From sequence record PZ445422.1: a DNA stretch of 56,589 bases; one strand, written 5' to 3'. This document shows, in pieces, positions 29,487 to 50,439 of the stretch. The translations under genes were made by a program, and so were the position numbers. The first letter of the stretch is position 1. Every line of letters starts with the position of its first letter. The notes below the pieces were generated by a model, which was not told where the DNA came from, did no database searches, and saw only the letters and a list, made by a program, of their open reading frames with translations. This DNA is from a phage.

Positions 29487-29513
29487 AAGCCGTCGAAAGA
29501 CGGCTTATTTTTC
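29487..29513 (+). terminator. intrinsic terminator
   Basis: aagccgtc-gaaa-gacggctt stem followed by ATTTTT. Confidence 0.55.
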
Positions 29514-29525
29514 TAAGGTACTCCA

Positions 29526-30434: not shown

Positions 30435-30436
30435 TT

Positions 30437-32413: not shown

Positions 32414-32428
32414 TTGACTTCAACATCT

Positions 32429-32460
32429 AATGCCCCTACTATTGGGGCATTACTTATTTA
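32429..32460 (+). terminator. intrinsic terminator
   Basis: aatgcccc-tactatt-ggggcatt stem followed by T-rich tract. Confidence 0.5.
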
Positions 32461-32472
32461 TAGGGGATTGCA

Positions 32473-32967
32473 ATGTACGTCCTAATTGATACAGATAAAT
32501 TTGAACTCTTGGCAAAGCACCCCAATTGGCTGACACTACACCAACTTGGAATTATTTGTTGCCCTGAGTCAACACTGGTAACACCAGTAGACGATTTACA
32601 CGATCTTGAAGATGTTGATCTTCAAATGCTTTATATTAACTTGACAGAAAATTTAGGAGCGGCACCTTATGAACGGGAAATCGTTGAGCGCATTTTGTTT
32701 GATTACTTTACGCAACTTCCAGAAACAATCATGGATCACGCCCAAATCAGCGCACAAGCCGAATTCTGTGTGGAATACGATATCCAAGGCTTTTGCTCAC
32801 CTCAAATTGGGCAATACGTTCCGTCAATGGATGAAGGACTTTGGAAACCTGCCCGTGTCAAATACGATGCTGAACGGGAGGGTGGTATTATTTCCGGTGC
32901 CAGGGTCGTTTGTGAGCAACCCGCATTGCAAGCTGCATGGACACCGGGCAGAGGGGCAAAGAGTTAG
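32473..32967 (+). CDS. hypothetical protein
   Basis: 164 aa; AGGGGA RBS. Confidence 0.5.
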   Translation: MYVLIDTDKFELLAKHPNWLTLHQLGIICCPESTLVTPVDDLHDLEDVDLQMLYINLTENLGAAPYEREIVERILFDYFTQLPETIMDHAQISAQAEFCVEYDIQGFCSPQIGQYVPSMDEGLWKPARVKYDAEREGGIISGARVVCEQPALQAAWTPGRGAKS

Positions 32968-33094
32968 TAAGTTCTAAGCTTGATCAAAAATATTTTTAAA
33001 AATATTCAGATAAGGGGTTGCGTGTCACAAAATCCTTTGGTACATTTAACCCCGTTGGTAACAAACGAACCCATAACAATTCGGAGTGAAGAGA

Positions 33095-33898
33095 ATGAGC
33101 AACATTGAAGATAAAAAAGCCGCTGCCGCTGCTGCCGCTGCTGCCGCTGCAAAATCTGCTAAACCTGCAAAGAAAGAAGCTACTGTGAATGATGCAGAAG
33201 CTAAGAAAGCCGCTGCCGCTGAAGCTGCACGCGTAGCAAAAGAGAAAAAAGAAGCAGAGAAAAAAGCTGCCGCTGAAAAGAAACAAGCTGAAATCCGCAC
33301 TGAAGCGGAAAACAAATTTAATGCGATTGCTAACGCTGCTGAAATCCTGAAAAACTCTTTGGCTACCGTCACCGACGAAAGCACTGTTGAACAAATCACG
33401 GAAGCAGAAACTCAGGGATCTGCAAACCTGAAGACCATTAAAGAAGCTCTGAAAGAGCTGAAAGCTGTCGTTAAGAAGTCTAAAGGTGAAGACCTGTCCG
33501 GTGCTGTAACTTCTGCCCAGGGTCTGGTGGATGGTCTGGAAGCTACTATTAAAGGCTTCAAAGACAAGATCCGTGCTGCAAAACAGGCAGAAAAAGAAGC
33601 GGAAAAAGCACGCGCTAAAGAGCTCCGCGAGAAAGAAAAAGAAGCTAATCGTATGCCGGAACAGAACGGTGTTCGTCGCCCACAACCGGAAACTTCCTGC
33701 GGTCGTGCCTGGGCCCTGATGGACCAGATTAGCGCTACGCTGGGTCAGCCTGCTCCGATCTCTTATGTTCTGAACCTGGCTGGTCGCCATGGTCTGAACG
33801 AAGATACCGTTAAAACCCAATATGCACGCTGGAAGAAATTTAATGGTGTAACTGGTCGCGTACCTGTGCCAGTACCGGAAGCTTTGAACGGCTTGTAA
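33095..33898 (+). CDS. Ala/Lys-rich histone H1-like protein with distinct C-terminal domain
   Basis: ATG at 33095 with GGAGTGAAGAGA RBS; N-terminal two-thirds is KAAAAAAAAAAAK / AEKKAAAEKK low complexity; C-terminal 80 aa globular. Confidence 0.5.
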   Translation: MSNIEDKKAAAAAAAAAAAKSAKPAKKEATVNDAEAKKAAAAEAARVAKEKKEAEKKAAAEKKQAEIRTEAENKFNAIANAAEILKNSLATVTDESTVEQITEAETQGSANLKTIKEALKELKAVVKKSKGEDLSGAVTSAQGLVDGLEATIKGFKDKIRAAKQAEKEAEKARAKELREKEKEANRMPEQNGVRRPQPETSCGRAWALMDQISATLGQPAPISYVLNLAGRHGLNEDTVKTQYARWKKFNGVTGRVPVPVPEALNGL

Positions 33899-33923
33899 TA
33901 TCAAAACATATCACGTTATAATG

Positions 33924-33950
33924 AAGGCGCCCAATGAGGCGCTTTCTTTT
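33924..33950 (+). terminator. intrinsic terminator
   Basis: aaggcgcc-caatga-ggcgcttt stem followed by T-rich tract. Confidence 0.5.
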
Positions 33951-33967
33951 TCACTAGAGGATTTAAG

Positions 33968-34675
33968 ATGAATATTAATCAACAAGCTCCCGAGTCTCGT
34001 TCTAAAGAAAACGATATGTATTTAGACGTGCATTCGGTATTCTCTACCATTCAGGGTGAAGGTCCATTCTGCGGTCAACCTGCGGTATTTGTGCGCCTTG
34101 CTGGATGTAACCTGCAATGCCCGGGCTGCGACACGGATTATACTGTTGGTCGTTCTCTTTACCACATTGTTGATATCATGCGTTTAATCGAAAGCCGTAA
34201 GCTGGAATCAGGCAATAGCACCTCACTTGTGGTTATTAGTGGGGGTGAACCGTTCCGTCAGCAAATTAACCCGTTTATTGAACAACTGTTATCGCGCGGG
34301 TATCTTGTACAGATTGAAACGAATGGGTCTATGCCTTTACCTAAGAACTTTTCCCAGCTACCTGTCATTGTATGCAGTCCTAAGACTTCAAAGATTCATC
34401 CTTCTGTGCTGTACCGCGCTAATGCATTTAAATATGTACTTAAAGCGTGCTGTGTAAACGTGGAAGATGGTTTGCCTCTTCAAGCATTAGATCATCAAGC
34501 TACGCCATTTATCGCTAGACCTCCGAAGGGGTTCAAGGGTAAGATATATTTACAGCCAATGGACGAGCAGGATGAAGATCTTAACCACAGTAACATCAAA
34601 GCGGTTGTCCAAAGCTGTATGAAACACGGGTACACGTTGCAGCTTCAGGTTCACAAATATATCGGGGTGGAATAA
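33968..34675 (+). CDS. queE: 7-carboxy-7-deazaguanine synthase (radical SAM)
   Basis: FSTIQGEGPFCGQPAVFVRLAGCNLQCPGCDTDYT matches the QueE N-terminal Cx14CxxC radical-SAM signature; AGAGGA RBS. Confidence 0.85.
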   Translation: MNINQQAPESRSKENDMYLDVHSVFSTIQGEGPFCGQPAVFVRLAGCNLQCPGCDTDYTVGRSLYHIVDIMRLIESRKLESGNSTSLVVISGGEPFRQQINPFIEQLLSRGYLVQIETNGSMPLPKNFSQLPVIVCSPKTSKIHPSVLYRANAFKYVLKACCVNVEDGLPLQALDHQATPFIARPPKGFKGKIYLQPMDEQDEDLNHSNIKAVVQSCMKHGYTLQLQVHKYIGVE

Positions 34676-34887
34676 TGATCACTTTAGAAGAAGCGAAACA
34701 GCATCAGGAAATGATCACTGAGCTGGTAGAAAAACTTAATTCTGCAATTGCTCACGCTACCATGCAGGGAGTGCATGTAGAATTGGATATTAATCACGTT
34801 AGTACAATCGGGGCACGCAATCATCCAATTGTGATGTCAAATGTAACAATCAATCCTTGTAATATTAAAGGTGTAGAAGATGAATGA
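34675..34887 (+). CDS. hypothetical small protein, paralog of next ORF
   Basis: 70 aa; LNSAIAHATMQGVHVELDI parallels LNDAICRAASKNIHSELEI in the adjacent ORF. Confidence 0.45.
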   Translation: MITLEEAKQHQEMITELVEKLNSAIAHATMQGVHVELDINHVSTIGARNHPIVMSNVTINPCNIKGVEDE

Positions 34888-35068
34888 AGAGACTGTGGTT
34901 CTTATGCAGAAGATGCAACGTTTACAAGACGAGCTGAATGACGCTATCTGTCGTGCTGCATCCAAGAACATACATTCGGAGCTTGAAATTCATAAGCGTC
35001 AGATGACATCTGATGATGTAGTTGAACAAGTGGTCGTTAATCTTAATATTAGCCTTAAAGGGTTCTAA
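34880..35068 (+). CDS. hypothetical small protein, paralog of previous ORF
   Basis: 62 aa; overlaps previous ORF by 8 nt; shared sequence pattern. Confidence 0.45.
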   Translation: MNEETVVLMQKMQRLQDELNDAICRAASKNIHSELEIHKRQMTSDDVVEQVVVNLNISLKGF

Positions 35069-35069
35069 G

Positions 35070-35777
35070 ATGAATAAATTAGATAAACTGGTATTCCCTG
35101 TAAAAAATCATAACTCCGCCGTTGTCGTCCTGTCTGGCGGCCAGGACAGCGTGACCTGTTTAGGTCTTGCACTTAATAACTATGATAAGGTTTACGCTAT
35201 TGGTTTTGCATACGGTCAACGTCATAACATTGAGCTGGCTTGTGCTAATCAAATTTGTAAAGAGCACGATGTCCAATTTGTTGTCTTTGAATTACCTGCT
35301 TTGAAACAGATTGGCAATAGCGCTTTAATCGGGAACGAAGGTGATGTTAACGAACATCACGAACAGCACAACAACCTTCCGGCTAGCTTTGTGCCAAACC
35401 GTAATGCTCTTTTTCTGACTACCGCGCACGCCTACGCGCAGAAAGTTGGCGCCCGATATGTGGTTACGGGCGTTTGCGAAACGGACTATAGCGGTTATCC
35501 GGATTGCCGTCAGCAGTTTGTAGATTTGCTTGAAGCTACGTTAAACGTTGGATATGAAACAGATATTCATTTCGTTACCCCGCTTATGCGTTTAAATAAA
35601 GCAGAAACGTTTGAGCTGGCGGATAAGGTTGGTTTCTTAACCACAGTAATTGAACAATCCCATACTTGCTATAACGGCGTCCGTCGCACTCTGCATGACT
35701 GGGGATATGGTTGCGGTGAATGTCCTGCGTGCAAACTGCGTGCTAAGGGGTACAGCGAATTTATTAGCAAAGCTTGA
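35070..35777 (+). CDS. queC: 7-cyano-7-deazaguanine (preQ0) synthase
   Basis: AVVVLSGGQDSVTCL PP-loop motif and YAIGFAYGQRHNIEL block typical of QueC; ATG at 35070 immediately after previous stop. Confidence 0.85.
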   Translation: MNKLDKLVFPVKNHNSAVVVLSGGQDSVTCLGLALNNYDKVYAIGFAYGQRHNIELACANQICKEHDVQFVVFELPALKQIGNSALIGNEGDVNEHHEQHNNLPASFVPNRNALFLTTAHAYAQKVGARYVVTGVCETDYSGYPDCRQQFVDLLEATLNVGYETDIHFVTPLMRLNKAETFELADKVGFLTTVIEQSHTCYNGVRRTLHDWGYGCGECPACKLRAKGYSEFISKA

Positions 35778-35897
35778 TCTTACCGCGAAAACCGCACCGC
35801 TAGCGCATTGTTTAGGGTGCGGGAACCCAACTATACTACTAAAGCTTTTAAACCCAACAACCAGCGAATAACGCTGTTAAAACTGGAGAACAAAAGT

Positions 35898-36377
35898 ATG
35901 AAATTTATCGTTGCTTATCTGGCTGCAATTACATTCGTAAACCTGGGCTTTTCCTACCTTCCAATACTTAACACGCCGCTTGGCGTAGTCCCGATGATGG
36001 CTTTCTTTGTAGGTATTATCTTTGTGTTGCGCGACTACGCACAGCGTAACGCTGGCAAAGGCGTCATCCCTGCAATGATTATCGGTTGTATTCTTAGCTG
36101 GGTATTCGGGGATCCTGCGGTTGTAGTTGCATCAGTTGCATCCTTTGCACTTAGCGAGTTTGCGGACTATGCGGTATACACGATTACTAAGAAGCCTTTC
36201 CATCAACGAGTATTTATCAGCTCTTTGGTAGCTGTACCGATTGACTCCATTGTGTTCTTAAGTATTATAGGTATTGTTAATCCGGGATCAATGGTAGCAA
36301 TGAGCTTAAGTAAGTTCACAGCATCCGCTATCCTTTGGATTGTTTACGAAGTTCAATCACGTACAGCGAGAGCGTAA
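35898..36377 (+). CDS. integral membrane protein, possible queuosine-precursor transporter (YhhQ/DUF165-like)
   Basis: ATG at 35898 with GGAG RBS; about 5 TM segments; assignment rests mainly on location inside the deazaguanine cluster. Confidence 0.35.
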   Translation: MKFIVAYLAAITFVNLGFSYLPILNTPLGVVPMMAFFVGIIFVLRDYAQRNAGKGVIPAMIIGCILSWVFGDPAVVVASVASFALSEFADYAVYTITKKPFHQRVFISSLVAVPIDSIVFLSIIGIVNPGSMVAMSLSKFTASAILWIVYEVQSRTARA

Positions 36378-36378
36378 A

Positions 36379-36969
36379 ATGAAAGATAATCTTAATAAAA
36401 TTTGGCACCAGCACGATGGGAAAGGAATGCCAATCTTTCTTCGCAATGAAAAGTTTGAAGTTCGTTTGCGCAACGGCACACACGTTAAGAATCTATTACA
36501 TGGATGGGATTGGGCTATAGAAGGGCGTTCAGCTATGGATGAAAATAGCCCTTATAAAGTTCAAGATATTATAGCCTGGCGATATATCGTTGCGGATGAT
36601 TACGTCAAACAAGCCAGCGAAAACACTCGCTCCGGAGTGTACCATCAACCTTCTTCTGGAATAAGCATAAGTAATACATTTAATGGTGCAGTTTTTACCA
36701 AATATGAACCATCTAAAATTCCCATGAATAAATATCAGAAAATTATTTATGGTAAAGATCAAAACGGCAATGTTGTAAAATGCATCGTGGACGTGTATGA
36801 TGTCTTGGAAGCTTGGAAAACAACTAACCCAGCTTTACAACATTTGATTAAAAAGGCGTTGCAGCCGGGCGAACGTGGTCATAAAAGTCTGGTAGAAGAT
36901 TTGAAAGACATTATTGCATCCGCACAGCGTGCATTAGAAATTGAACAGTCTAAAGAGGTATTAAAATGA
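36379..36969 (+). CDS. hypothetical protein embedded in deazaguanine cluster
   Basis: 196 aa; ATG at 36379 right after previous stop; stop overlaps queD start; no recognisable motif. Confidence 0.5.
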   Translation: MKDNLNKIWHQHDGKGMPIFLRNEKFEVRLRNGTHVKNLLHGWDWAIEGRSAMDENSPYKVQDIIAWRYIVADDYVKQASENTRSGVYHQPSSGISISNTFNGAVFTKYEPSKIPMNKYQKIIYGKDQNGNVVKCIVDVYDVLEAWKTTNPALQHLIKKALQPGERGHKSLVEDLKDIIASAQRALEIEQSKEVLK

Positions 36970-37502
36970 GCTATACAGTAATTCGTTCACATGAAATTTG
37001 CGCCGGACATCGTGTTGTAGGTCACGAAAGCAAATGTCGCCACCTCCACGGTCACAACTATAAGTTTCACTTTAAGGTTGCTCCGAAGCATGGATGCGGA
37101 AAAGTAGTGACACGAGGAAAGCTGATTGAGGACGGTCTGGACAGCGTTGGGCGCGTGATTGACTTTAGTGTGGTTAAAGCTACGCTCTGCCAGTGGCTAG
37201 AAGATAACTGGGATCATAAGTTTCTACATTGGGAAAAGGATATGTTGATCAACGGACTGCAATGTTGTATTGAAACGGATACTCAATCTGAACGCGGTTG
37301 GCCTACTTTCGGTGAAGGGGATGAAGATCTTAAAGCTTTTAACGATTCACTGGTATCTTTGCCGTTCAACCCAACTGCGGAAAACCTAGCTGCATATATG
37401 GTTGAAGTAATTGGTCCGCAACTGCTTGACGAACATAGTGTTCAACTTGTAGAATGCACCATCGAAGAAACTTCGAAATGCCACGTAAACTATAGCCTGT
37501 AA
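36966..37502 (+). CDS. queD: 6-carboxy-5,6,7,8-tetrahydropterin synthase
   Basis: ICAGHRVVGHESKCRHLHGHNY carries the QueD/PTPS Cys and His-x-His zinc motif. Confidence 0.8.
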   Translation: MSYTVIRSHEICAGHRVVGHESKCRHLHGHNYKFHFKVAPKHGCGKVVTRGKLIEDGLDSVGRVIDFSVVKATLCQWLEDNWDHKFLHWEKDMLINGLQCCIETDTQSERGWPTFGEGDEDLKAFNDSLVSLPFNPTAENLAAYMVEVIGPQLLDEHSVQLVECTIEETSKCHVNYSL

Positions 37503-37503
37503 T

Positions 37504-38127
37504 ATGACCACATTAACAAGGAAACTGCAAACCATGTCTAAATATAGTATTAATAGTGAAGGTGTTCAATTCCGTATTGCTAACGCTGTGCGTACTTTAC
37601 TATCCCAAATTGAAGTTAGCGCGGTTCTGCGCCCAGGGCTGGAGGAAACTCCGGAGCGTGTAGCGAAAGCTTATGCAACGTGGTTTAGCGGTTACGATGT
37701 AGATATCGCTGGATTGTTTAAAACCTTTGAAGATGGTGCGGAAGGTACGGATGAAATGGTCATTGTCCGTGATATTCCTGTATACAGTCATTGTGAGCAT
37801 CACATGGCCCCTATCATCGGGCGTGCTGTTGTGGGTTATGTCCCCAATGGGAAGATCGTTGGGCTTAGTAAGCTGTCTCGCGTTGTGGATGCTTTTAGTC
37901 GTCGACTGCAAGTTCAGGAACGTCTTACTAACCAGATTGCAGATGCTATCCAGGAGCATTTAGACCCGAAAGCTGTGTGCGTTTACATCGATGCTAAGCA
38001 TATGTGCATGGAATCGCGCGGGGTTAAGCAGGTATGCGGAAGCTCTACCATTACTAAAGCTTTCCGCGGTGCTGCATCGTTTAAAGGTGATGCTTGGCGC
38101 CGGGAGTTCCTTGAAGCTTGTAAATAA
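37504..38127 (+). CDS. folE: GTP cyclohydrolase I (alternative start at 37534)
   Basis: CEHHMAPIIGRAVVGYVPNGKIVGLSKLSRVVDAFSRRLQVQERLT matches the FolE active-site region nearly residue for residue. Confidence 0.9.
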   Translation: MTTLTRKLQTMSKYSINSEGVQFRIANAVRTLLSQIEVSAVLRPGLEETPERVAKAYATWFSGYDVDIAGLFKTFEDGAEGTDEMVIVRDIPVYSHCEHHMAPIIGRAVVGYVPNGKIVGLSKLSRVVDAFSRRLQVQERLTNQIADAIQEHLDPKAVCVYIDAKHMCMESRGVKQVCGSSTITKAFRGAASFKGDAWRREFLEACK

Positions 38128-38146
38128 TAGATAGCTTTACAGATCA

Positions 38147-38182
38147 AGCCCATATCGGTCATAATACTGGTATGGGCTTTTT
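38147..38182 (+). terminator. possible terminator or attenuator hairpin
   Basis: agcccata ... tatgggct stem with large loop followed by TTTTT. Confidence 0.3.
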
Positions 38183-38198
38183 AGTCATTGGAGGAAAT

Positions 38199-38405
38199 AT
38201 GTCAAGACAACTAATCTTAGAGACAGCATTCTACCAGCTTAAAGCAGGTACTGCGGATGCTTGCTCTGCAATACAGAATGATGCGCCTACAGATGTTTTA
38301 AAGCAGCAGCTTATTGACGCTAAACATCGAGCGGACGAAGCATTTAATGAAGCGTGGCGTACTTTAGAATTAATTGATCAGTTTGGAGGACCATTCCAAA
38401 AATGA
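38199..38405 (+). CDS. hypothetical small protein
   Basis: ATG at 38199 with GGAGGAAAT RBS; 68 aa. Confidence 0.45.
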   Translation: MSRQLILETAFYQLKAGTADACSAIQNDAPTDVLKQQLIDAKHRADEAFNEAWRTLELIDQFGGPFQK

Positions 38406-39322
38406 ACGTATTTATGGCAGCAGTTTACACAAACGGATATATGCCTGGACAGCAGCGTTATGAGAAGCTGTCTGAGCATGAGAAAAATATCACGCGCAAT
38501 CTGCCCCATATTTTGGAATCATATCACTACGTTGGGCGTCAGAAGTATGTTGATCAAATGCGTGCGGACGGGGCTAAAGTGTTTCTCGACTCCGGTGCAT
38601 TCTCTGCGCACTCTTTAGGTGCTCACATTGATATTGTCGAATATTGCGAATACATCAAACGCAATAAAGATATCCTGCGGGTAGAAGATGGTGCGGTAAT
38701 GGCGTCGGTACTTGATGGTATCGGTGATCCGTTACAAACCTACCGTAACCAGCTTGAAATGGAAGCACGCGGTGCTAAACCGTTACCGTGCTTTCACTTT
38801 GGTGAGGACTTCCGCTATCTTGAATATTACATGAAGAACTACGAATATATCACCATCGGGGGCATGGTAGGGCGTTCGACAGACACGCTTAAAACATGGC
38901 TTGACCGTATGTGGGACAAATACATTTGCGATGGTAGCGGTTGCCCTAAGATTAAGCTTCATGCATTTGGTATTACGTCCACTACCATCATGGAACGTTA
39001 TCCGTGGTATAGCTGTGACTCGTCCTCCTGGATTCAAGCGGCAGCGTTTGGAAGTGTGGTTACTCCTCCGTGGGGACCAATGCGCGTATCAGATAAGTCA
39101 CCGGACCGCCATCATTTTGGTAAGCATGTTTCAACATTAACTGAAATTGAACAAGACGCTGTCCTTAAATACCTTGAGCAAAACGGTTTCACTTACGAAC
39201 GTTTATCAACAATCTATGAATCACGTGCCGCCTTCAACTTATGGGCGTATGGTGTAATTGCTGCAAACATTAACGCTACCCATGACGGCACATTCCGTGA
39301 TCGTGTAATGGAGTTGTTCTGA
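38402..39322 (+). CDS. dpdA: 7-deazaguanine DNA transglycosylase (TGT-like)
   Basis: 306 aa; VFLDSGAFSAHSLG resembles the TGT catalytic-Asp block (DSGGFQ); co-located with folE-queD-queC-queE; start overlaps upstream stop. Confidence 0.65.
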   Translation: MNVFMAAVYTNGYMPGQQRYEKLSEHEKNITRNLPHILESYHYVGRQKYVDQMRADGAKVFLDSGAFSAHSLGAHIDIVEYCEYIKRNKDILRVEDGAVMASVLDGIGDPLQTYRNQLEMEARGAKPLPCFHFGEDFRYLEYYMKNYEYITIGGMVGRSTDTLKTWLDRMWDKYICDGSGCPKIKLHAFGITSTTIMERYPWYSCDSSSWIQAAAFGSVVTPPWGPMRVSDKSPDRHHFGKHVSTLTEIEQDAVLKYLEQNGFTYERLSTIYESRAAFNLWAYGVIAANINATHDGTFRDRVMELF

Positions 39323-39549
39323 TGGCTAACTTAAGAAGACCAAAAGGTAAACGTAAATATACTCACACAGGCGTAAGAATTAATTATTACAGTGAAAACA
39401 GAGTAGTATTTCTCCACAAGACACCTAAGCAGTGGCAGGATCCGTCAGGCACATGGTTTAATGCGCAAGGAAAACAAATGGGACTTTATGGATTACCTCC
39501 AACATGTGAATTAGACTTAACCACAATTAGAGCAATCGAGGATCGCTAA
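39322..39549 (+). CDS. hypothetical small protein
   Basis: 75 aa; ATG overlaps dpdA stop. Confidence 0.45.
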   Translation: MANLRRPKGKRKYTHTGVRINYYSENRVVFLHKTPKQWQDPSGTWFNAQGKQMGLYGLPPTCELDLTTIRAIEDR

Positions 39550-39785
39550 TGACACCAGTGTGTGAAGAATATATTACTTCCCAATCTAAAGCTGGGGGTA
39601 AAGCGGTAGGTCGTGTTGCCATCGCTAAGTTAACAAACGCGGGCTATGTACCAAAAGTTACCCCACCACCCCCTGAGCCCTGGATATGGGAGAAAAACGA
39701 GGGTCGTATTATGGCCATTACATCGTATATGGGACCTTTTAGATTAAAGATTGAGTATCTTGTAGACTTAGATGGGGACTCCTAA
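39549..39785 (+). CDS. hypothetical small protein
   Basis: 78 aa; TAATG stop-start overlap on both sides. Confidence 0.45.
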   Translation: MTPVCEEYITSQSKAGGKAVGRVAIAKLTNAGYVPKVTPPPPEPWIWEKNEGRIMAITSYMGPFRLKIEYLVDLDGDS

Positions 39786-40738
39786 TGCTTGACGCTCTTA
39801 AATTTGTTCAAGGCTCTGTTGCTAAAAAGGAACTGGTAGAAGGGCTTACTAGCTTTCTTATTCGTGACGGGCAGGTACAAGGCTTTAACGGTGTTATTGC
39901 ACTGGGTAGTCCTATTGAGCTGGATATTGATTGCAAGCCCGAAGCTGGGCCTATGATTAAAGCTATCTCAAACTGTGACGAAACCGTACAGTTAACAATG
40001 ATGGCTAACGGTAAACTTAATATCAAGTCCGGACCGTTTCGTGTTGCTATACGCTGCATTGATAAAGAAACGCTGCACGTATTCCCTGAAGGCGATTTGT
40101 ACGAAATAGATGGTGCTCGCTTCGTTCATGGTGTGAAGTCCGTTGCTCCGTTTGTAGGCTCGGATGCGTCCCGTCCGTGGGCTTGCGGGATCCTGATTAA
40201 TAACGGTAGTCTATTTGCTACAAATAACGTCACCATTGCGGAATACTGGTTTGGTAATCAGTTTCCTATTGATTGCATAATACCTTCCGTTGCAATTAAA
40301 GAAATACTGCGTATTAAAGCTAACCCGACGCATATTCAGGTTAGCAAGAACAATGTCACGTTTCATTATCCGGAAGGTCGCTGGTTGCGCACACAGCTTA
40401 TTGATGCGGAGTGGCCCGATATACGTCGTATTTTAAATGTTCAATGCAATGCGCATCCTGTTGATCCAGGTCTTTTTGAAGGCTTGCATAAAATTAAACC
40501 GTTCGCAGAAGACCGACCGCGTGTATATATTGAAAACGGTCTGGCGCGTACCCATTACGACGATGCAGAAGGTGCAAGCTTCGTATTACAAGACCGAACA
40601 ATAACGGGAGTGTACAATATTGATATCCTGCTATTGCTTGAAAATGTGGTTAAGACTGCGGACTTTAGTTTGTATCCGCAACCTTGCGCATTCTTTGGGG
40701 AAAATCTTCGCGGTGTATTAATTGGAGAACGTGTCTAA
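39785..40738 (+). CDS. DNA polymerase sliding clamp (DnaN-like)
   Basis: 317 aa; HYPEGRWLRTQLIDAEWPDIRRIL parallels the DnaN domain II-III junction (..FTSKLVDGRFPDYRRVL); directly upstream of polymerase. Confidence 0.5.
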   Translation: MLDALKFVQGSVAKKELVEGLTSFLIRDGQVQGFNGVIALGSPIELDIDCKPEAGPMIKAISNCDETVQLTMMANGKLNIKSGPFRVAIRCIDKETLHVFPEGDLYEIDGARFVHGVKSVAPFVGSDASRPWACGILINNGSLFATNNVTIAEYWFGNQFPIDCIIPSVAIKEILRIKANPTHIQVSKNNVTFHYPEGRWLRTQLIDAEWPDIRRILNVQCNAHPVDPGLFEGLHKIKPFAEDRPRVYIENGLARTHYDDAEGASFVLQDRTITGVYNIDILLLLENVVKTADFSLYPQPCAFFGENLRGVLIGERV

Positions 40739-42723
40739 TGCGGACAGATGCTATTGGTTTCTTTTGGCAGGACTTACCGCCTGAGCCAAAAGCAAAGAAA
40801 GAAAAGGTTAAACGTTTACCGCCGGAGCGCACTTGGGAGCGCCCGGATTATCTGCCTAACCTTGAAGAAGCGCGGAACTTCCAATACAACCTGTATACGC
40901 AGGACGAACTTATTCAAGCATGGATTAACCGCGAACCGCTTGTATACGATATTGAATGTTATCCAAACTATTTCTTAATCGCGTTTCGCGGAGTACGGAC
41001 TAAGAAAGTTGTCTACTTCGAAATGTATCACGGTTGTAGTTTGAATTGCTTGTTACTTAACTGGATAATGACAAACTTCCTTATCGTAAGCTTTAACGGT
41101 AACGGGTACGATATGCCAATTGCTACGCTTGCGCTTAACGGCTGCTCTAATGCTCAGCTTAAAGATGCAACCGATAAGATAATCGTGGAAGACTGGCGTC
41201 CTTCCGATGTGTTGAAGAGTTACCGCCTTAAGCGTATGCAGAACGTTAACCACATTGATATTATGGAAGTTCTGCCTGGATCTGGTGGTTTGAAACAATA
41301 TGGCGGACGTGTACATACTCGCCGTATGCAGGATTTACCGTTCAAGCCAAATACAATGTTGACGCAGGACCAGATGTTAATTGTACGCTGGTACTGTATT
41401 AACGACCTTGTACAGACGGAAGAATGTTTTATTGCATTGCAAGAGCCTTTGCACCTTCGTGAAATTATGTCGCAAGAATACGGTGTGGATCTGCGTTCAC
41501 GTTCTGATGCGCAGATTGCAGAAGACGTAATTAAACACGAAATTCAAGCGTTAACGGGCGTGCGTCCGCAGCGTCCACAAGTTTATCCTGGAACTAAGTA
41601 TGCATATAACATACCGGACTTTATTCGTTTTCAAACACCTCTGATGAACAGTGTTTTGGATATTGTTCGGGACTGCCGTTTTGTTGTTAGCGATAACGGT
41701 GGTGTTAGCTTACCTCCAGCGTTAACAGGCCTTGAAATCAAGATTGCGGACGGTGTCTACCGTATGGGCATTGGTGGTTTGCACAGCTCTGAAGAATGTG
41801 CTGGACATGGTAAAGAGCCAGGTATTAAAAAGCGGGACATTGACGTAACGTCCTATTACCCTTCTATTATTCTTAATCAGGGCTTGTATCCTGAGCAGTT
41901 GGGACCAGCGTTTCTTCGTGTTTATAAAAGCATTGTAGACCGACGTATTGCAGCTAAGCACTCAGGGGACAAGAACACAGCCAATACGCTGAAGATCGTA
42001 ATTAACGGATCGTTTGGTAAATTGGGTTCAATGTGGTCCGTACTGTACGCTCCGCAATTGTTGATACAGGTAACTATCACAGGGCAACTATCACTGTTAA
42101 TGCTTATTGAAGCATTTGAGCTGAACGGTGTTAAAGTAATTTCAGCTAACACGGATGGTATTGTGGTTAAGTATCCTGACCACATGCAGGACTTCGTTGA
42201 TAACATGATCAAGTGGTGGGAATCCGTCACAGGTTTTGAAATGGAATCCACTTATTATGACAAGCTATATAGCGCGAACGTTAACAACTATGTAGCTGTC
42301 AAAGAACCTGATGCAGAAGGTAACGTTGAAGTTAAGCGTAAGGGCTGGTTTGCCAAGACAGGGCTTCAAAAGAACTGTACTGGTGAAATTATTATGGAAG
42401 CTGTATGTGAATGTTTGGCCCACGGTACGCCTGTTTCTCGTACTATACGCAATTGCAACGATATTAGAAAATTCATTATCCTACGTGCAGTAAAAGGCGG
42501 CGCGGTATGGAATGGCGAATTTTTGGGTAAGGTTGTACGCTGGTATTTAAGCACCAATGAAGAAACCCCTGAAATAATCTATGCTAACTCGGGCAACCGT
42601 GTAGCTGGTAGCGCGGGAGGTGTCCCAATCATGACGCTACCGGATAAAATACCGGACGACATAGATTATGATGCTTATATAGCTAAAGCAGAGAAGTATC
42701 TCGAAGACATGGGTTATGCCTAA
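40738..42723 (+). CDS. family B DNA polymerase with 3'-5' exonuclease domain
   Basis: Exo I-like YDIECYPNYF; family B motif A DVTSYYPSIIL; motif C-like variant ISANTDGIVV; ATG at 40738 overlaps clamp stop. Confidence 0.75.
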   Translation: MRTDAIGFFWQDLPPEPKAKKEKVKRLPPERTWERPDYLPNLEEARNFQYNLYTQDELIQAWINREPLVYDIECYPNYFLIAFRGVRTKKVVYFEMYHGCSLNCLLLNWIMTNFLIVSFNGNGYDMPIATLALNGCSNAQLKDATDKIIVEDWRPSDVLKSYRLKRMQNVNHIDIMEVLPGSGGLKQYGGRVHTRRMQDLPFKPNTMLTQDQMLIVRWYCINDLVQTEECFIALQEPLHLREIMSQEYGVDLRSRSDAQIAEDVIKHEIQALTGVRPQRPQVYPGTKYAYNIPDFIRFQTPLMNSVLDIVRDCRFVVSDNGGVSLPPALTGLEIKIADGVYRMGIGGLHSSEECAGHGKEPGIKKRDIDVTSYYPSIILNQGLYPEQLGPAFLRVYKSIVDRRIAAKHSGDKNTANTLKIVINGSFGKLGSMWSVLYAPQLLIQVTITGQLSLLMLIEAFELNGVKVISANTDGIVVKYPDHMQDFVDNMIKWWESVTGFEMESTYYDKLYSANVNNYVAVKEPDAEGNVEVKRKGWFAKTGLQKNCTGEIIMEAVCECLAHGTPVSRTIRNCNDIRKFIILRAVKGGAVWNGEFLGKVVRWYLSTNEETPEIIYANSGNRVAGSAGGVPIMTLPDKIPDDIDYDAYIAKAEKYLEDMGYA

Positions 42724-42733
42724 ATTCTACTTG

Positions 42734-42758
42734 CAGACCCTTCGCGGGTCTGTTTTAA
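42734..42758 (+). terminator. intrinsic terminator
   Basis: cagaccc-ttcgc-gggtctg stem followed by TTTTAATA. Confidence 0.55.
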
Positions 42759-42787
42759 TATATGCATACAACAAGAGGAGATGCAAA

Positions 42788-43072
42788 ATGAGCTTAGTAG
42801 ACGATTACAACAAAGGTAAAATCGACGCGGTGGAACTTAACCGTCAGCTTAATAAACAAAATGAAGAACGCAAACAAGGTAAATACCTTACAATGATTGT
42901 TGCGCTTATCTTCACTGTTATTGGTGGATGTGTTTACGGCTACATTAACCACACTGTTGAAGTTGGCTACGAATGTCGCGCTAAATATCCAATTCACGTT
43001 GGTGTAACTCCACAGGAAGACATTGATGCGCTTCTGGAACTTCAAGCCTTATGTCGTAAAGGGAAAGCATAA
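42788..43072 (+). CDS. small membrane protein
   Basis: ATG at 42788 with AGAGGAG RBS; central TM segment LTMIVALIFTVIGGCVYGYI. Confidence 0.45.
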   Translation: MSLVDDYNKGKIDAVELNRQLNKQNEERKQGKYLTMIVALIFTVIGGCVYGYINHTVEVGYECRAKYPIHVGVTPQEDIDALLELQALCRKGKA

Positions 43073-43365
43073 TGAAACGTTTATTACTCGTAACTTTGCT
43101 GATAGCGCCTGGTGTCCAAGGTGTGGATTTAAAAGATGCAGCAAAGAAACTATGCCAAGACCATCCTATTAAGTTACAATGTGAAGACCTTGTATCCAGC
43201 ATGTTAACTCATTCTTACGTGATGGGACAAACGCAGCTTGGATGTGAGTTAGGTATTATTGATGCGTGCAAAGCAGCGCGTACCAATAAACATTTTGAAA
43301 AGAACGCACGTTGGCTGGAGCAGCGCATTAGAACCCTTGATCATAGGGGTACTTTTGGGGGCTAG
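43072..43365 (+). CDS. secreted Cys-containing small protein
   Basis: N-terminal signal-like MKRLLLVTLLIAPGVQG; six Cys in mature part. Confidence 0.45.
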   Translation: MKRLLLVTLLIAPGVQGVDLKDAAKKLCQDHPIKLQCEDLVSSMLTHSYVMGQTQLGCELGIIDACKAARTNKHFEKNARWLEQRIRTLDHRGTFGG

Positions 43366-43397
43366 CCGCGTGTAAAACCTTAAAGGGGTATATTAGC

Positions 43398-43604
43398 ATG
43401 GCTGGTAAAGAAAAGAGCGTAGCAAGCGATTTAGGTGTGGATGTAGTAAGTCGCGAACCGTGGCAACATGGTGACAAACCAGTAGTTTACATTCACGTCT
43501 ATTACTGGAATAATATGACCGCTGAGCAACAAGAAGCGTTAAAGGTTTTAGCCGACGTTATTGTTGTTCCAGATGAGCCAACTCCGGAATCACCGGAAGT
43601 GTAA
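43398..43604 (+). CDS. hypothetical small acidic protein
   Basis: 68 aa; followed by terminator. Confidence 0.45.
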   Translation: MAGKEKSVASDLGVDVVSREPWQHGDKPVVYIHVYYWNNMTAEQQEALKVLADVIVVPDEPTPESPEV

Positions 43605-43613
43605 TAAAATAAT

Positions 43614-43637
43614 ACCCGCGTTCGCGCGGGTATTTTA
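43614..43637 (+). terminator. intrinsic terminator
   Basis: acccgcg-ttcg-cgcgggt stem followed by ATTTT. Confidence 0.6.
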
Positions 43638-43647
43638 AGGAGTGAAT

Positions 43648-43833
43648 ATGGCTAGAGCAGCAAAAGGTTACAGACAGACTTTTAAGCTAATTGGTGGACC
43701 GTGGGATGGGCAAAAAGTACAACTATATAGCGCGGGAACTTTAGAATTTTCCGTTAAAAGTTTTGATCCACGCCCTGGGCGTTATGTACCATCAAGCTAT
43801 CGTAATACTTTAGAATGGGAGTTTACTAAATGA
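43648..43833 (+). CDS. hypothetical small protein
   Basis: ATG at 43648 with AAGGAG RBS. Confidence 0.45.
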   Translation: MARAAKGYRQTFKLIGGPWDGQKVQLYSAGTLEFSVKSFDPRPGRYVPSSYRNTLEWEFTK

Positions 43834-44036
43834 ATGAATATGTAGTTATTTATTTCATTATTGGTGCTGTGATTGCAACAATGACTTATTTCTTTTGTTG
43901 GAATAACTATGATTATGCACTAGCCTATAAGAAACGTTGGGAGAAGATTGTAAGTCTTCTATGTATACTCGCTTGCTGGCCAGTCACTATTATTGCGACT
44001 ACTTATGATCAATACATGTACAGGAGAAGACGTTGA
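43830..44036 (+). CDS. small membrane protein
   Basis: 68 aa, two hydrophobic segments. Confidence 0.45.
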   Translation: MNEYVVIYFIIGAVIATMTYFFCWNNYDYALAYKKRWEKIVSLLCILACWPVTIIATTYDQYMYRRRR

Positions 44037-44314
44037 TGGAATACTTGCTAGTAATTGTTGCGCTGTTTCTTATTATTGTGGTTATAATGACTGGAGACAG
44101 TAACGAGAAAGGTTTCACAGCAATGAGCAGGGCGTTATTACGCGCCCTTGCTGTTGCACTGCTTGGGACAAGTTTTGCTATGGCGTTTGGGATTGTGGAG
44201 ATCCCTAGCACCTATTACGGTTTTGTTAAAGTTCAACACCAACTTACTTATGCTACCGTCGTCGGATTGGGTGCTGTAACACTTGCAATCCTGTCAGCTT
44301 TTCATAAGCGTTAA
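44033..44314 (+). CDS. small membrane protein
   Basis: 93 aa, three hydrophobic segments; last plus-strand gene. Confidence 0.45.
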   Translation: MMEYLLVIVALFLIIVVIMTGDSNEKGFTAMSRALLRALAVALLGTSFAMAFGIVEIPSTYYGFVKVQHQLTYATVVGLGAVTLAILSAFHKR

Positions 44315-44315
44315 A

Positions 44316-44340
44316 GAAAGGGGCGTTTGCCCCTTTTCTC
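44316..44340. terminator. bidirectional intrinsic terminator between convergent modules
   Basis: aaggggc-gttt-gcccctt stem with A tract before and T tract after. Confidence 0.6.
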
Positions 44341-44343
44341 TTC

Positions 44344-44547
44344 TTAGAATATACGAAAGAAAGCACCGTATGGGTATACGCCAAAAGTATTGAAAACAGA
44401 CGGTGCAAAAGCATTTACAAACACAGGAGTTGGCGCTACTGGTTGAAAAGTTTTGCAATTGCACGCTGCTTGAGCCAATTGCCCCTGAAGTATACCTGCT
44501 TGTGTTGCAGGACTGCCTAGACAGCAACGGTTAGTATTACCACACAT
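44344..44547 (-). CDS. small Cys-rich hypothetical protein
   Basis: 67 aa; AAGGAGG RBS before ATG at 44547. Confidence 0.45.
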   Translation of the reverse strand: MCGNTNRCCLGSPATQAGILQGQLAQAACNCKTFQPVAPTPVFVNAFAPSVFNTFGVYPYGAFFRIF

Positions 44548-44558
44548 AGTAGACCTCC

Positions 44559-44843
44559 TTAAAGGTCGCTTTCGTTATCCTGCTTGGAACTGGGCTTTTC
44601 GGCTTCAATCATCCCAAGTACCGCAATAACTTTAACAGCAATACGTTGAGCTAGACTGATTTGCTGCTGGGTTAATTTTCCGGTCGACATCACAGTCATT
44701 AACCCGCTTAAGTTTCCAAGTGACTTGAAATCGCTGAATGCGGATTTCATAATAGTAAGTTGATCATGACCTTCATCTGCTATAACATGAGCACGAATAG
44801 AAAGTCCTTCAACAACTTTATCAATACCTTCATTCTTCGTCAT
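44559..44843 (-). CDS. hypothetical protein
   Basis: 94 aa, co-oriented downstream of tail fiber. Confidence 0.45.
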   Translation of the reverse strand: MTKNEGIDKVVEGLSIRAHVIADEGHDQLTIMKSAFSDFKSLGNLSGLMTVMSTGKLTQQQISLAQRIAVKVIAVLGMIEAEKPSSKQDNESDL

Positions 44844-45360
44844 TTGGTTTTACCTTCTGCTCCGGTTTCTGAGGGATCGTTTGAGCGGTCTTTGGTTGCA
44901 GCACTTCCTGATCAATCATGGGTGGCCACGGGCTAATATGCTCGCGTGCTTCTACAGGCTGCTCTGGTTGCATACCAAGAAACTTACTAATAAAATCCCC
45001 TGCGAAGTCTGTGCCATCGCTGACGTAAACATGCATACGATCAAGATCTGATTGACTAATGGAGTTTGGAGCAATTGTAATCTTGAACTGGTGGAAGCCG
45101 ACATACATCACATTCACGGGTCGTTCGATAGTGCCCGGCGTAGGCGGTATCACTCCCATAATCCAACAGTAATGAACCCTTCCATCACCCATAGGTTCAC
45201 ATCCAGCATTAAGCCAGCTCACCTTCTGGTGTGGGAACATGGTAGTTGAATCGGTAGCGTCCCGACGTAACGTCCAATCAACACCGCCCATGTTGATGGA
45301 GTTTTTCGGTTTCATCCCGTTGAACTGGGTTACGCCCATTCCTGCGTTTACGTTTTGCAT
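44830..45360 (-). CDS. hypothetical protein
   Basis: 176 aa; AGGAAG RBS. Confidence 0.45.
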   Translation of the reverse strand: MQNVNAGMGVTQFNGMKPKNSINMGGVDWTLRRDATDSTTMFPHQKVSWLNAGCEPMGDGRVHYCWIMGVIPPTPGTIERPVNVMYVGFHQFKITIAPNSISQSDLDRMHVYVSDGTDFAGDFISKFLGMQPEQPVEAREHISPWPPMIDQEVLQPKTAQTIPQKPEQKVKPNDEE

Positions 45361-45375
45361 GTCGGCTTCCTATTC

Positions 45376-45744
45376 TTACATATCTTTCATTTTTTGAAGA
45401 GCGCAAGTACAAGCTGCGGCAAGATCAGTCAACTCTTTCATGATCCCTGCGCGGTCACCTTCTTTCTTACACTCCATTAATTCGCGGTATTCCATTTCAA
45501 CAATGGACATCATACCGCCGGGCTTGTCGTGGTACGCCGCCCACGTATGCGGAGGTTCTTCCATCCGGTCAAGAACATTTGACATAGCTGCCATATGTTC
45601 ATGATCTCGAGCATAAGAGTGAGCATGTTTATATTCCTCTTTCTCATGTTCATGGTTGTGCTCACCTACGCTAATGCGAGGTAAAGCAACCTTAGGCAAT
45701 TTAACCCGTGGCATTCCCATCGTTGCGATTTTAATGTGGCTCAT
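45376..45744 (-). CDS. His-rich hypothetical protein (weak MazG-like helical pattern)
   Basis: EHNHEHEKEEYKHAHSYARDHEH His-rich stretch; EMEYRELMECKKEGD...KELTDL loosely resembles MazG EExxE/D; AGAGGT RBS. Confidence 0.35.
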   Translation of the reverse strand: MSHIKIATMGMPRVKLPKVALPRISVGEHNHEHEKEEYKHAHSYARDHEHMAAMSNVLDRMEEPPHTWAAYHDKPGGMMSIVEMEYRELMECKKEGDRAGIMKELTDLAAACTCALQKMKDM

Positions 45745-45792
45745 GATATTACCTCTGTTAAAAGCGCCCCAAGCGGAGGAGCGAAAGGCGCT

Positions 45793-46966
<1,174 letters not shown>

Positions 46967-47036
46967 ATTTATTTGACTTACTCAACACAACAAGTATATT
47001 AAAATTGAACCTTGACAACAACACAAAGGAGTCCCG

Positions 47037-47270
47037 ATGAAATACGCTCTAATTATGCTGGCATTATGTTTATCCCTCACTGCATGTGGTAATGGTTTAA
47101 ATACTGGTAAACCTAATTCCGGCGTCATTCCAAAACCTTTGGATCGCGATGGTAACGGTTCTTTAATTTATGATACCGAAAAGCTTCCAATGACTGGGCA
47201 ATGGTGCCATGAAATTGATCACGAATACCGACGAATTGGCTCACCTTCAAACTGTGTGATTGATTATTGA
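47037..47270 (+). CDS. lipoprotein (candidate superinfection-exclusion factor)
   Basis: signal peptide with lipobox LSLTACG; 77 aa; opposite strand between tail fibre genes; followed by bidirectional terminator. Confidence 0.5.
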   Translation: MKYALIMLALCLSLTACGNGLNTGKPNSGVIPKPLDRDGNGSLIYDTEKLPMTGQWCHEIDHEYRRIGSPSNCVIDY

Positions 47271-47273
47271 AAA

Positions 47274-47300
47274 TTAACCCCTCAAACGAGGGGTTAATTA
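47274..47300. terminator. bidirectional intrinsic terminator
   Basis: ttaacccctc-aaac-gaggggttaa stem flanked by A/T tracts. Confidence 0.6.
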
Positions 47301-47304
47301 TTTA

Positions 47305-50300: not shown

Positions 50301-50439
50301 TCAAAAGAGCACCTGCTGCGGTTGCAGCAATACCGATAACGAGAGCGGTAGTAGCTGAAATAATACTAGCCGCAGCAGCAGCCGACGCACCTAAAGCTAT
50401 CGCTGCTCCAATTATTGCTGGTGGCATTAGACCCTCCAA
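47305..50439 (-). CDS. tail tip / central fibre protein (lambda J-like host specificity protein)
   Basis: 1044 aa; follows K/L/M-like genes in lambda order; beta-rich C-terminal region. Confidence 0.6.
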   Translation of the reverse strand: MEGLMPPAIIGAAIALGASAAAAASIISATTALVIGIAATAAGALLTKTPNMNFDAYKGQQERKQVLRAATASRSVVYGTTVASGLLAFAEEEAGDQDEGEWMHLVVVLASHKLEGIETIWLGDDGIDWFGENATWEFHNDRQTVDPFMLRHCPSWKEDMIGKGIAWLRLSLKFDAEKFPSGLPNVKVLKKGRRVYDPRSGQTVFSDNAALVILDYFRTYLKRKDENINWDQFKEAANICDEFVTNADNTTERRYRINGEFEVDEAPAKILDAMLEACGGELTYIGGKHGLLVGAYYGPATMTLDESCIAGDIKIIPETSYKERTNTITGTFVDPKQTYAEADFPPVVVKEWVEKDGGEITQDMDFRFVTSEYQAQRLANIILRRKRVGRTIEVPCNMKGYKFRPGMYVNVTISNIGMKNVEMRVTKWSFDPKGGINLVLRQDFLEMWDDAIGKPMERPDLVDLPSGAIAQPQNLQYQILQISDVVQGVLTWSNIGQVAYNRVAVRQGGTTVWTAQVPGQNVRVTGLLRGAYTAHVQAVAYSGAISPEAYLQFNIQAPPPPTSVEVQQGYFAISLIPKSADIANVSTQYDFWTSGETRLSSVSTDVVEREATRKGMGTTWTSEGLKNDHTYYWYVRTINAFGSSAFVEVAALCFTTATDLMPQIDSEFKKTETYKELTTEITGVKDGVTQLSQTVVETEQRLSQSVSNVQQSVITLDGVVQDQGVTINEQGQLIDAQGKLIDTQGKTIETVSATVQETSKAVVDLEGNVNAQWGAKVQVDSKGQKYVAGIQLGMEGSGGAVQSYFMVSANNFAIYNPTNSVAELAFAVKNGQVFMKAAFIENGTIDSAKISNQIQSTNYASNSAGWMINKNGSAQFNNVTIRGTVYASNGSFTGTVNATSGKFKGTVEATSFVGDVANMCVIAESAIPNTQTTSSRTWTKTFKDSSGSTLSKDFVLLLSYSLTAYTSNQASRIIVTANIGGTSITRRIERAAKGPAMDVTIPLAVKGKTASSVTISVKEEYTNVYGSYLRPSVILMTRGTGSWS

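Follow-up and report, generated by a model that had tools for sequence, protein, structure and literature searches.

In Seuratviruses such as CAjan, the genes for the synthesis of preQ0 (7-cyano-7-deazaguanine) and for its insertion into DNA form a module with the order queE-queC-yhhQ-queD-folE-small open reading frame (ORF)-dpdA-small ORF-clamp-polymerase (Hutinet 2019, PMC6884629; Kot 2020, PMC7544227). Nearly all GA and GGC sites are modified in CAjan, and deletion of dpdA abolishes all dPreQ0, the deoxynucleoside of preQ0 (Kot 2020, PMC7544227). More generally, modification genes have been found to adjoin polymerase genes (Olsen 2023). Here, we analyse the corresponding block in a stretch of phage DNA of 56,589 nucleotides (nt; PZ445422.1), in the following called the window, i.e. 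the genes for the transglycosylase DpdA, a sliding clamp and a DNA polymerase together with three small ORFs and the flanking hairpins (Table 1). We propose that this block (about 38185-42757) constitutes a single, conserved operon for replication that is co-expressed and in which DpdA is a client of the sliding clamp and modifies newly made DNA, a reading to which we assign a probability of roughly 0.55.

The window is the genome of Escherichia phage GottfriedDienst (Bas21, MZ501071.1; Seuratvirus, Queuovirinae; 56,589 bp), reverse-complemented and circularly permuted by 8,991 nt, and the 4.3-kb region studied is 100% identical to it; a tail gene (55939..273) bridges both ends of the window. 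CAjan and about 35 further Seuratviruses share 93-96% nucleotide identity with the 4.3-kb region. In GenBank the block genes of MZ501071.1 are labelled hypothetical protein, DpdA, two hypothetical proteins, 'DNA polymerase beta subunit' and DNA polymerase, and queE, queC, yhhQ, queD and folE are annotated upstream of them. As genes and gene order are thus already in GenBank, the operon as such is not new. Its order is that of the CAjan module (93% nucleotide identity), from which it differs by an additional ORF cassette of 237 nt between small ORF and clamp gene.

In the papers examined on the deazaguanine module of CAjan and the Seuratviruses the clamp is unmentioned, according to word searches, and the DpdA tail is not discussed. 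No paper linking DpdA or deazaguanine to a clamp, DnaN or sliding clamp was found in our literature collection, which is incomplete, and a word search of the phage-host interactome paper on Streptococcus phage Dp-1 (PMC4840434) gave no mention of gp7, gp10, DnaN or clamp. A role of DpdA as clamp client is apparently unreported and constitutes a specific, testable hypothesis. In its widest form, which we rate at slightly less than even odds, it would make DpdA the first base-exchange enzyme shown to be tethered to a clamp via a C-terminal Leu-Phe (LF) pair, in phages whose hosts span four or more bacterial phyla, with the N-terminal leader of the polymerase as a portable module.

Bacterial clients of the beta clamp, e.g. 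Pol II, Pol IV, MutS and Hda, carry a motif of the QL[SD]LF type, the consensus being QL[SD]LF or QxxLF, in which Q comes first and L-F takes positions 4 and 5. By analogy, DpdA would resemble these proteins in its short hydrophobic LF peptide, which is located terminally after a variable linker, and in having a three-domain beta clamp as partner. However, DpdA is a transglycosylase, the clamp is phage-encoded and only 12-17% identical to cellular DnaN, no phage clamp loader was found, and the GottfriedDienst tail, VMELF, has no Q. In eukaryotes, the maintenance methyltransferase DNMT1 is tethered to PCNA by a PIP box (PCNA-interacting peptide). This may be regarded as an analogous case, as a post-replicative DNA-modifying enzyme is brought to new DNA by a short clamp-binding peptide, but the enzyme is a eukaryotic methyltransferase, and its motif, a PIP box that binds PCNA, is not at the extreme C-terminus.

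Among phages, the α-glucosyltransferase of T4 is a DNA-modifying enzyme that has been proposed to sit on the replisome clamp, gp45, during replication; gp45, however, is trimeric and PCNA-like, and neither a conserved gene adjacency nor a terminal motif comparable to DpdA is found in T4. Binding of α-glucosyltransferase to gp45 was deduced from in vitro work of earlier date, and a preprint of 2025, in which the enzymes carried C-terminal tags, failed to reproduce it (10.64898/2025.12.06.692756). In the bacterial Dpd system (DpdA/B/C; PMC10164549), finally, a homologous transglycosylase puts preQ0 into DNA and acts together with the ATPase DpdB within an island of more than ten genes. The sequence match of the phage enzyme to this system is weak and non-significant (PDB entry 7ui4, E 0.73), no dpdB or dpdC is annotated beside GottfriedDienst dpdA, and the latter is located in a replisome operon instead.

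The DpdA tail and the neighbouring clamp gene

DpdA from GottfriedDienst is 99.3% identical to CAjan DpdA and matches phrog_887 (E 3e-95). There is no Pfam match even at E 10, and the PDB entry of DpdA gave only the score mentioned above; these libraries do not reach so divergent a family, and the assignment rests on the identity to the CAjan enzyme. D63 and D206, the catalytic aspartates according to the CAjan model (Kot 2020, PMC7544227), are invariant in nine sequences, down to 40% identity, and the preQ0 genes folE, queD, queE and queC lie directly upstream (Pfam GTP_cyclohydroI E 3e-64, PTPS E 2e-22).

At the other end of the protein, L305 and F306 are likewise invariant in nine DpdA proteins down to 40% identity. 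They are located at the extreme C-terminus behind a variable linker, the eight positions that precede the motif, -7 to -14, having an entropy of 2.7-3.5 bits. L[FY] is present within the last eight residues of all 120 database homologues (120/120). The DpdA proteins of the phage's own lineage all carry a terminal LF, as RVMELF, IQELF, QMELF (Stenotrophomonas phage), QMGLF (Shewanella phage S0112), EQRLF or PVLF, or as LQDLFDE in the genus Nonagvirus. The feature extends to distant relatives: DpdA from Dp-1 (31% identical) ends in QRRLF and DpdA from Bacillus phage Flasso in QGKLF, while the enzyme of Mycobacterium phage Hilltopfarm ends in NGQDV. Among the 95 proteins of GottfriedDienst only DpdA has an LF end, and no other protein among those listed for the regions of Dp-1 and Flasso ends in LF.

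The co-occurrence of tail and clamp gene was surveyed in 240 loci from three sets, with clamps detected by an iterated hidden Markov model; 206 of the loci could be scored. We distinguished a strict motif, L[FY], from a loose hydrophobic motif that comprises forms such as ..LF, ..SLI, ..GFGL and ..GFF. A clamp gene downstream of dpdA, always on the same strand, was found in 161 loci, and DpdA carries the loose motif in 149 and the strict motif in 120 of these. In the 45 loci with no clamp within 4 kb or more the numbers are four and two, respectively, and in a background of 3,440 other ORFs the frequencies are 16% and 2%. When DpdA was clustered at 50% identity, the motif was present in 12 of 13 clusters with a clamp vs three of 17 without (Fisher p 1.2e-4).

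The gene order itself is also conserved. The arrangement queE-queC-queD-folE-dpdA-(0-2 small ORFs)-clamp-(0-1 small ORF)-polymerase is kept with DpdA identity down to 42%, i.e. in JenK1 (Nonagvirus), JG012 (Nipunavirus), R7M (Amoyvirus) and Vibrio phage AL-2 as well as in a Stenotrophomonas phage, Shewanella phage S0112, Aminobacter phage Erebus and Synechococcus phage Ssp-JY38, and clamp and polymerase follow dpdA in 77 of 77 complete metagenomic loci (59-100% identity). The dpdA-clamp pair is unchanged where a family A polymerase replaces the family B enzyme. Moreover, dpdA, two small ORFs and a DnaN-like clamp gene are found in Dp-1 and Flasso, and in Cellulophaga phage phiSM the clamp gene lies 2.5 kb downstream of dpdA; no clamp was found near dpdA in Hilltopfarm. 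Phages of Proteobacteria, Cyanobacteria, Firmicutes and Bacteroidetes thus share the order dpdA, then clamp. Locus searches with Dp-1 DpdA alone, or with the N-terminus of the primase alone, returned only close relatives.

Two side observations concern similar peptides. DpdA from phiSM, reported to be inactive in E. coli (Hutinet 2023), is short (240 residues) and has no LF tail, and an overlapping ParB-like ORF ends in SVNLF (L095:3129-4303). The primase of GottfriedDienst starts with M-M-E-L-F-P (19812-19829), which is similar to V-M-E-L-F at the end of DpdA; the primase relatives retrieved all belong to the same genus.

The clamp is modelled with high confidence by AlphaFold2 (mean predicted local distance difference test score, pLDDT, 92.9; predicted template modelling score 0.87). 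The best 50 PDB matches in Foldseek are all bacterial DnaN clamps, matched over their full length (E ~1e-20 (2e-20), template modelling score ~0.8, 12-17% identity). A profile of 40 homologues matches PDB clamps with E 3e-5, and the protein itself matches phrog_947 with E 2e-80. In Pfam the protein stays below the curated threshold (DNA_pol3_beta_2, 20.8 bits vs a cut-off of 27). It is a remote homologue of the bacterial beta clamp and, according to the model, has its three-domain fold. From tail, clamp fold and gene order, we regard it as an even chance that DpdA is a client of this clamp. Thus, the suggestion of the first-pass annotation, a note made from the letters of the window alone, that modification is linked to the replisome gains from the cross-phylum dpdA-clamp order and from a clamp-binding-like tail that tracks clamp genes, the physical link being a prediction from sequence. 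Its other suggestion, that DpdA may act directly after replication, is already the accepted view of the enzyme (Hutinet 2023).

Junctions and transcription of the block

The first-pass annotation had listed four overlapping stop-starts, at 39322, 39549, 39785 and 40738, as ATGA or TAATG and had deduced tightly coupled co-expression. All four overlaps are present, but the junction after dpdA reads TGATG, its stop codon TGA (39320-39322) sharing one nucleotide with the following ATG (39322-39324). The other three are TAATG, again with one shared nucleotide, i.e. TAA 39547-39549 with ATG 39549-39551, TAA 39783-39785 with ATG 39785-39787 and TAA 40736-40738 with ATG 40738-40740. A fifth overlap, missing from that list, is the ATGA at 38402-38405, where the stop codon of bas21_0040 lies on the start of dpdA. 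The gene ends are the same in MZ501071.1, and the same 1-nt overlaps occur in CAjan, so that the overlaps are true sequence and not a sequencing artefact.

Overlaps are frequent throughout the genome (95 annotated genes), occurring at 31 of 84 same-strand junctions (37%), 13 times by 1 nt and six times by 4 nt. No longer run than these five exists in the genome, but 27% of shuffles reached a run of that length (P ~0.27); a run of four 1-nt overlaps was reached in 2.7%, in a post hoc test. The run thus exceeds chance only weakly, and overlapping is the normal packing style of this genome. Among 65 distinct related loci, the stop codon of dpdA overlaps the following start in 43 (36 by 1 nt) and that of the clamp gene in 52.

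In terms of transcription, the block appears undivided. A consensus scan yielded 25 promoter-like sites inside it vs 25.4 expected, i.e. chance level, and a scan for terminator-like hairpins gave none on the + strand; in related loci such a hairpin follows dpdA in none of 67 cases and the clamp gene in one of 68. Internal promoters or terminators, named beforehand as evidence against a common operon, were therefore not seen beyond chance level.

The block is flanked by hairpins. Upstream, a 14-bp stem (38146-38179) followed by a U-run (to 38184) has the appearance of an intrinsic terminator (ΔG -20.8 kcal/mol, z -4.9), and none of 200 shuffles was equally stable. It is overlapped by a putative promoter, TTTACA-18-CATAAT (38136-38165, scan score 10/12), whose -10 element lies within the loop, and hairpin and promoter-like sequence are identical in CAjan. 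Non-homologous hairpins occupy the equivalent position between folE and dpdA in 19 of 64 related loci; in loci with such a hairpin, dpdA groups with clamp and polymerase and not with the genes of preQ0 synthesis. Downstream, a hairpin (42733-42753) followed by UUUU begins 10 nt past the polymerase stop codon (ΔG -13.6 kcal/mol, z -4.5); in the Seuratvirus relatives its stem is kept and its loop is variable. A downstream terminator as a rule for the whole family was rejected, as it was found in only four of 62 loci of other genera and is thus a Seuratvirus feature.

Taken together, the block is very probably transcribed as one unit, with DpdA produced together with the replisome, as far as signals in the DNA can indicate. 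The co-expression that had been deduced from the junctions thus fits the common strand, the internal promoter-like sites at chance level, the lack of internal terminator-like hairpins and the flanking hairpins.

Alternative explanations

Several observations weigh against DpdA as a clamp client. As to the clamp, no loader was recognised among the proteins of the replication module (23573-33898). Loader-less viral clamps are basic (Kazlauskas and Venclovas, PMC3201878); the clamp of GottfriedDienst is acidic (isoelectric point, pI, 5.56) and resembles ring clamps instead. As to the enzyme, DpdA from phage 9g, when expressed with Gat-QueC in E. coli, modifies as much as 18% of the G in a plasmid although no phage clamp is there. 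Mycobacterium phage Rosebush contains about 96,500 dPreQ0 per 10^6 nt with its modification genes beside terminase, not polymerase, genes, and Dp-1, which has both tail and DnaN, is modified at only 1.7% of G. A clamp is thus neither necessary nor sufficient for high modification. As to the tail, the AlphaFold2 model of DpdA, built with 37 homologues of about 70% identity, is poor (mean pLDDT 64, tail below 50), and RVMELF of GottfriedDienst has LF without the Q of canonical QxxLF, although relatives match it (QMELF, QMGLF, QRRLF, QGKLF, QKRLF). In 39 of 49 tight dpdA junctions, NNG-GAG occupies the codons at -4/-3, while GAG makes up 45% of the Glu codons elsewhere in the gene. Finally, the correlation of motif and clamp may reflect a few deep clades, the cases being phylogenetically non-independent.

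One may argue that the block reflects no more than ordinary compact packing and inherited gene order, the replication and modification genes being passed on as one module. LF would then be unrelated to the clamp and serve DpdA itself, in its folding, its oligomerisation or its contact with DNA. This is the alternative that survives best, and we consider it unlikely while granting it real weight. It would account for the overlaps, which are common genome-wide with a run of five that is not significant, and is in line with the overall synteny of Queuovirinae-like genomes, with DpdA activity in E. coli that lacks the phage clamp and with a tail that is not modelled confidently. Simple inheritance, however, does not agree with the dpdA-clamp order in the unrelated backbones of Dp-1, Flasso and phiSM, nor with an order that outlasts the change of polymerase family and variable inserted ORFs. 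Moreover, 41 of 45 DpdA relatives without a nearby clamp have no tail in spite of the common catalytic core. If the tail had a structural role in the fold, one would expect it with and without a clamp gene nearby, and thus the fact that it is mostly missing in the clamp-less group argues against such a role.

Alternatively, the tail might be a handle for another partner, i.e. the host beta clamp, the polymerase or an enzyme of the preQ0 pathway. DpdA from 9g, with the tail LQDLFDE, reaches near phage-level modification in E. coli cells that are not infected and thus have no clamp but their own, and many tails fit the bacterial consensus QxxLF. The tail follows the phage-encoded clamp gene, though, and not merely the bacterial host, and DpdA proteins of actinophages have no tail in spite of the beta clamps of their hosts, which renders a partner other than the phage clamp improbable.

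The junctions themselves invite the idea of obligatory translational coupling, in which ribosomes that end dpdA would be required for the downstream starts and would set the ratio of DpdA, clamp and polymerase. Four successive 1-nt overlaps that are conserved in relatives agree with such a coupling. Nevertheless, each gene of the block has its own Shine-Dalgarno (SD) sequence of normal strength, located inside the 3' end of the preceding gene; the SD energies range from -5.5 to -9.3 kcal/mol, compared with medians of -6.4 for the genome and -2.1 for random sequence. In CAjan, a deletion of 310 bp in dpdA (del29212-29521) gave a mutant phage that was propagated to high titre. Simulated on the CAjan sequence, this deletion shifts the frame and brings translation to a stop codon 181 nt upstream of the following ATG, so that the downstream genes are probably independent of ribosomes arriving from dpdA. 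In addition, the junction has annotated gaps of 8 nt in JenK1 and 51 nt in JG012, and accessory ORFs are gained or lost between dpdA and clamp. In Dp-1, an annotated terminator and a promoter separate dpdA from the DnaN gene (L093:4733-4816), so that the dpdA-clamp link cannot rest on translational coupling there. Obligatory coupling is therefore very improbable: tightly coupled translation, as originally deduced, would be nothing special in a genome in which 37% of junctions overlap, and is called into question by the separate SD sequences and the viable frameshift mutant. The overlapping junctions give co-expression but not obligatory coupling.

The SD sequences also bear on how the tail is to be read. 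In the tail codons, ATG-GAG (39308-39313) also provides the GGAG SD of the next gene. The residue at -4 varies between Q, R, M, A and P, with a codon that mostly ends in G. As a side observation, last codons that double as the SD of the next gene favour E, G and R at the C-terminus, which can look like conservation at the protein level. We therefore rejected a clamp motif 'QELF' in which Q stands at -4, since Q/R/M/A/P at -4 and E at -3 mostly reflect the GGAG SD; the safe protein-level signal is confined to LF and, in many lineages, Q at -5. That the entire tail is a nucleotide side effect, the last dpdA codons having to encode SD and U-rich spacer for the overlapping gene, draws on this GGAG pattern, on the variable -4 position and on the other block genes, whose last codons carry the next SD too, but is hardly credible, as LF is not SD-like, is kept where the next gene lies 29-122 nt away and in Dp-1 across the annotated terminator and promoter, and the outgroup tails KRRTLF, QKRLF and GFGL have no GGAG-encoding residues.

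Polymerase, small ORFs and the proposed role of the clamp

The polymerase displays the family B motifs in order, i.e. Exo I D71xE, Exo II N120..YD, Exo III Y219..D, A D369..SYYPS, B K419..NGSFG and C NTDG 471, where N replaces the first D of DTD in motif C. It matches phrog_1252 (E 4e-229) and, among PDB entries, Sulfolobus PolB1 (1s5j, E 9e-6) and E. coli Pol II (E 0.013), while the Pfam match is sub-threshold (DNA_pol_B_exo2, 14.4 bits vs a cut-off of 24). By its motifs and profile matches it is predicted to be a divergent family B enzyme. Translation is assigned to ATG 40738 (SD energy -6.4 kcal/mol) and not to TTG 40684 (+0.9), the upstream start of the mechanically delimited ORF.

The N-terminal leader reads MRTDAIGFFWQDLPP…PPE..W..PDYLP in GottfriedDienst and has the general form M-R-x-D-x-x-G-[FLM]-F-W-x-D…PP..W..P.YLP. 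Residues R2, D4, G7, F9 and W10 are invariant in nine polymerases, three of which belong to family A, and the motif is conserved in about 80 loci. The family A polymerases, from the Stenotrophomonas, Shewanella and Synechococcus phages (L009:6868-, L010:6028-, L012:6892-), take the same place in the cassette; they carry the leader, match Pfam DNA_pol_A with E <1e-60 and are about 21% identical to the GottfriedDienst polymerase. The alignments thus suggest that the polymerase core was swapped and the leader retained, and the leader is a candidate for a portable module that binds the clamp or another partner.

The three small ORFs have homologues only in Seuratvirus loci and none in other genera; as they are restricted to the genus, they were rejected as conserved partners. 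For bas21_0040, the annotated start at 38172 falls inside the stem of the upstream hairpin. The ATG at 38199 has a GGAGG SD (-9.3 kcal/mol vs -2.4 at 38172), phrog_20065 aligns to residues 10-77, and the CAjan counterpart, gp36, has 68 residues; thus, 38199 is probably the true start. No Pfam match was obtained for bas21_0038. The ORF bas21_0037, for which neither PHROG nor Pfam gave a match, is a single-ORF cassette of 237 nt inserted exactly at the stop/start overlap, with TAATG on both sides. Among the matching phages it occurs only in GottfriedDienst, phiG7 and WildeMaa and is absent from CAjan and most Seuratviruses, most relatives aligning with 95% query coverage in two pieces.

Table 1. 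Features of the dpdA-clamp-polymerase block and its boundaries in the window
Feature	Position	Strand	Basis
Upstream boundary hairpin and promoter-like site	38136..38184	+	RNA fold, promoter scan
Small ORF bas21_0040	38199..38405 (annotated from 38172)	+	phrog_20065
dpdA, DNA-guanine transglycosylase inserting preQ0, DpdA1 type	38402..39322	+	phrog_887, CAjan identity
DpdA C-terminal tail codons R-V-M-E-L-F	39302..39319	+	conservation, clamp-gene association
Small basic ORF bas21_0038, 75 residues, pI 10	39322..39549	+	phrog_38388, E 1e-55
Small ORF bas21_0037, 78 residues, 237-nt cassette	39549..39785	+	indel boundaries
Predicted bacterial-type beta sliding clamp, 317 residues, three domains, acidic	39785..40738	+	AlphaFold2, Foldseek, phrog_947
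Predicted divergent family B DNA polymerase with 3'-5' exonuclease domain	40738..42723	+	phrog_1252, motifs
Polymerase N-terminal leader, ~45 residues	40738..40872	+	invariant residues across polymerases
Downstream boundary, intrinsic-terminator-like hairpin and U-run	42733..42757	+	scan, RNA fold

Elsewhere in the replication module, genes without a name match a single-stranded DNA-binding protein (SSB), a Sak4-like annealing protein, RusA and an exonuclease with a Cas4 domain. The acidic C-terminal tip of bacterial SSB, DDDIPF, is resembled by the end of a superfamily II helicase, ...DDPDYVPF (32390-32413), which may be another short docking peptide.

If DpdA is indeed a client of the clamp, the following sequence of events may be envisaged. 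The block would be transcribed as a single unit, so that DpdA appears alongside the replisome. The LF tail (L305-F306), held by the variable linker that precedes it, would insert into the cleft in which the phage or host beta clamp binds peptides, and docking on a clamp left on new duplex DNA would position DpdA there, so that base exchange closely follows replication. DpdA could then swap G for preQ0 at its target sites, which are GA and GGC in CAjan, before host nucleases meet unmodified DNA. The leader of the polymerase (RxDxxG[FLM]FW…) would have moved between family A and family B polymerases as a partner-binding module, and the phage clamp might thus serve as a small hub that organises both replication and anti-restriction modification.

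Tethering to a clamp would address a question raised by 7-deazaguanine systems, namely how hundreds of sites per genome can be modified fast enough to escape restriction. As clamp-riding by phage DNA-modifying enzymes is contested for T4, the putative handle of DpdA offers a direct hypothesis in tractable phages, i.e. CAjan and the phages of the BASEL collection. If true, it would also bear on the use of DpdA as a DNA-labelling tool, and C-terminal tags could mask the recruitment of the enzyme.

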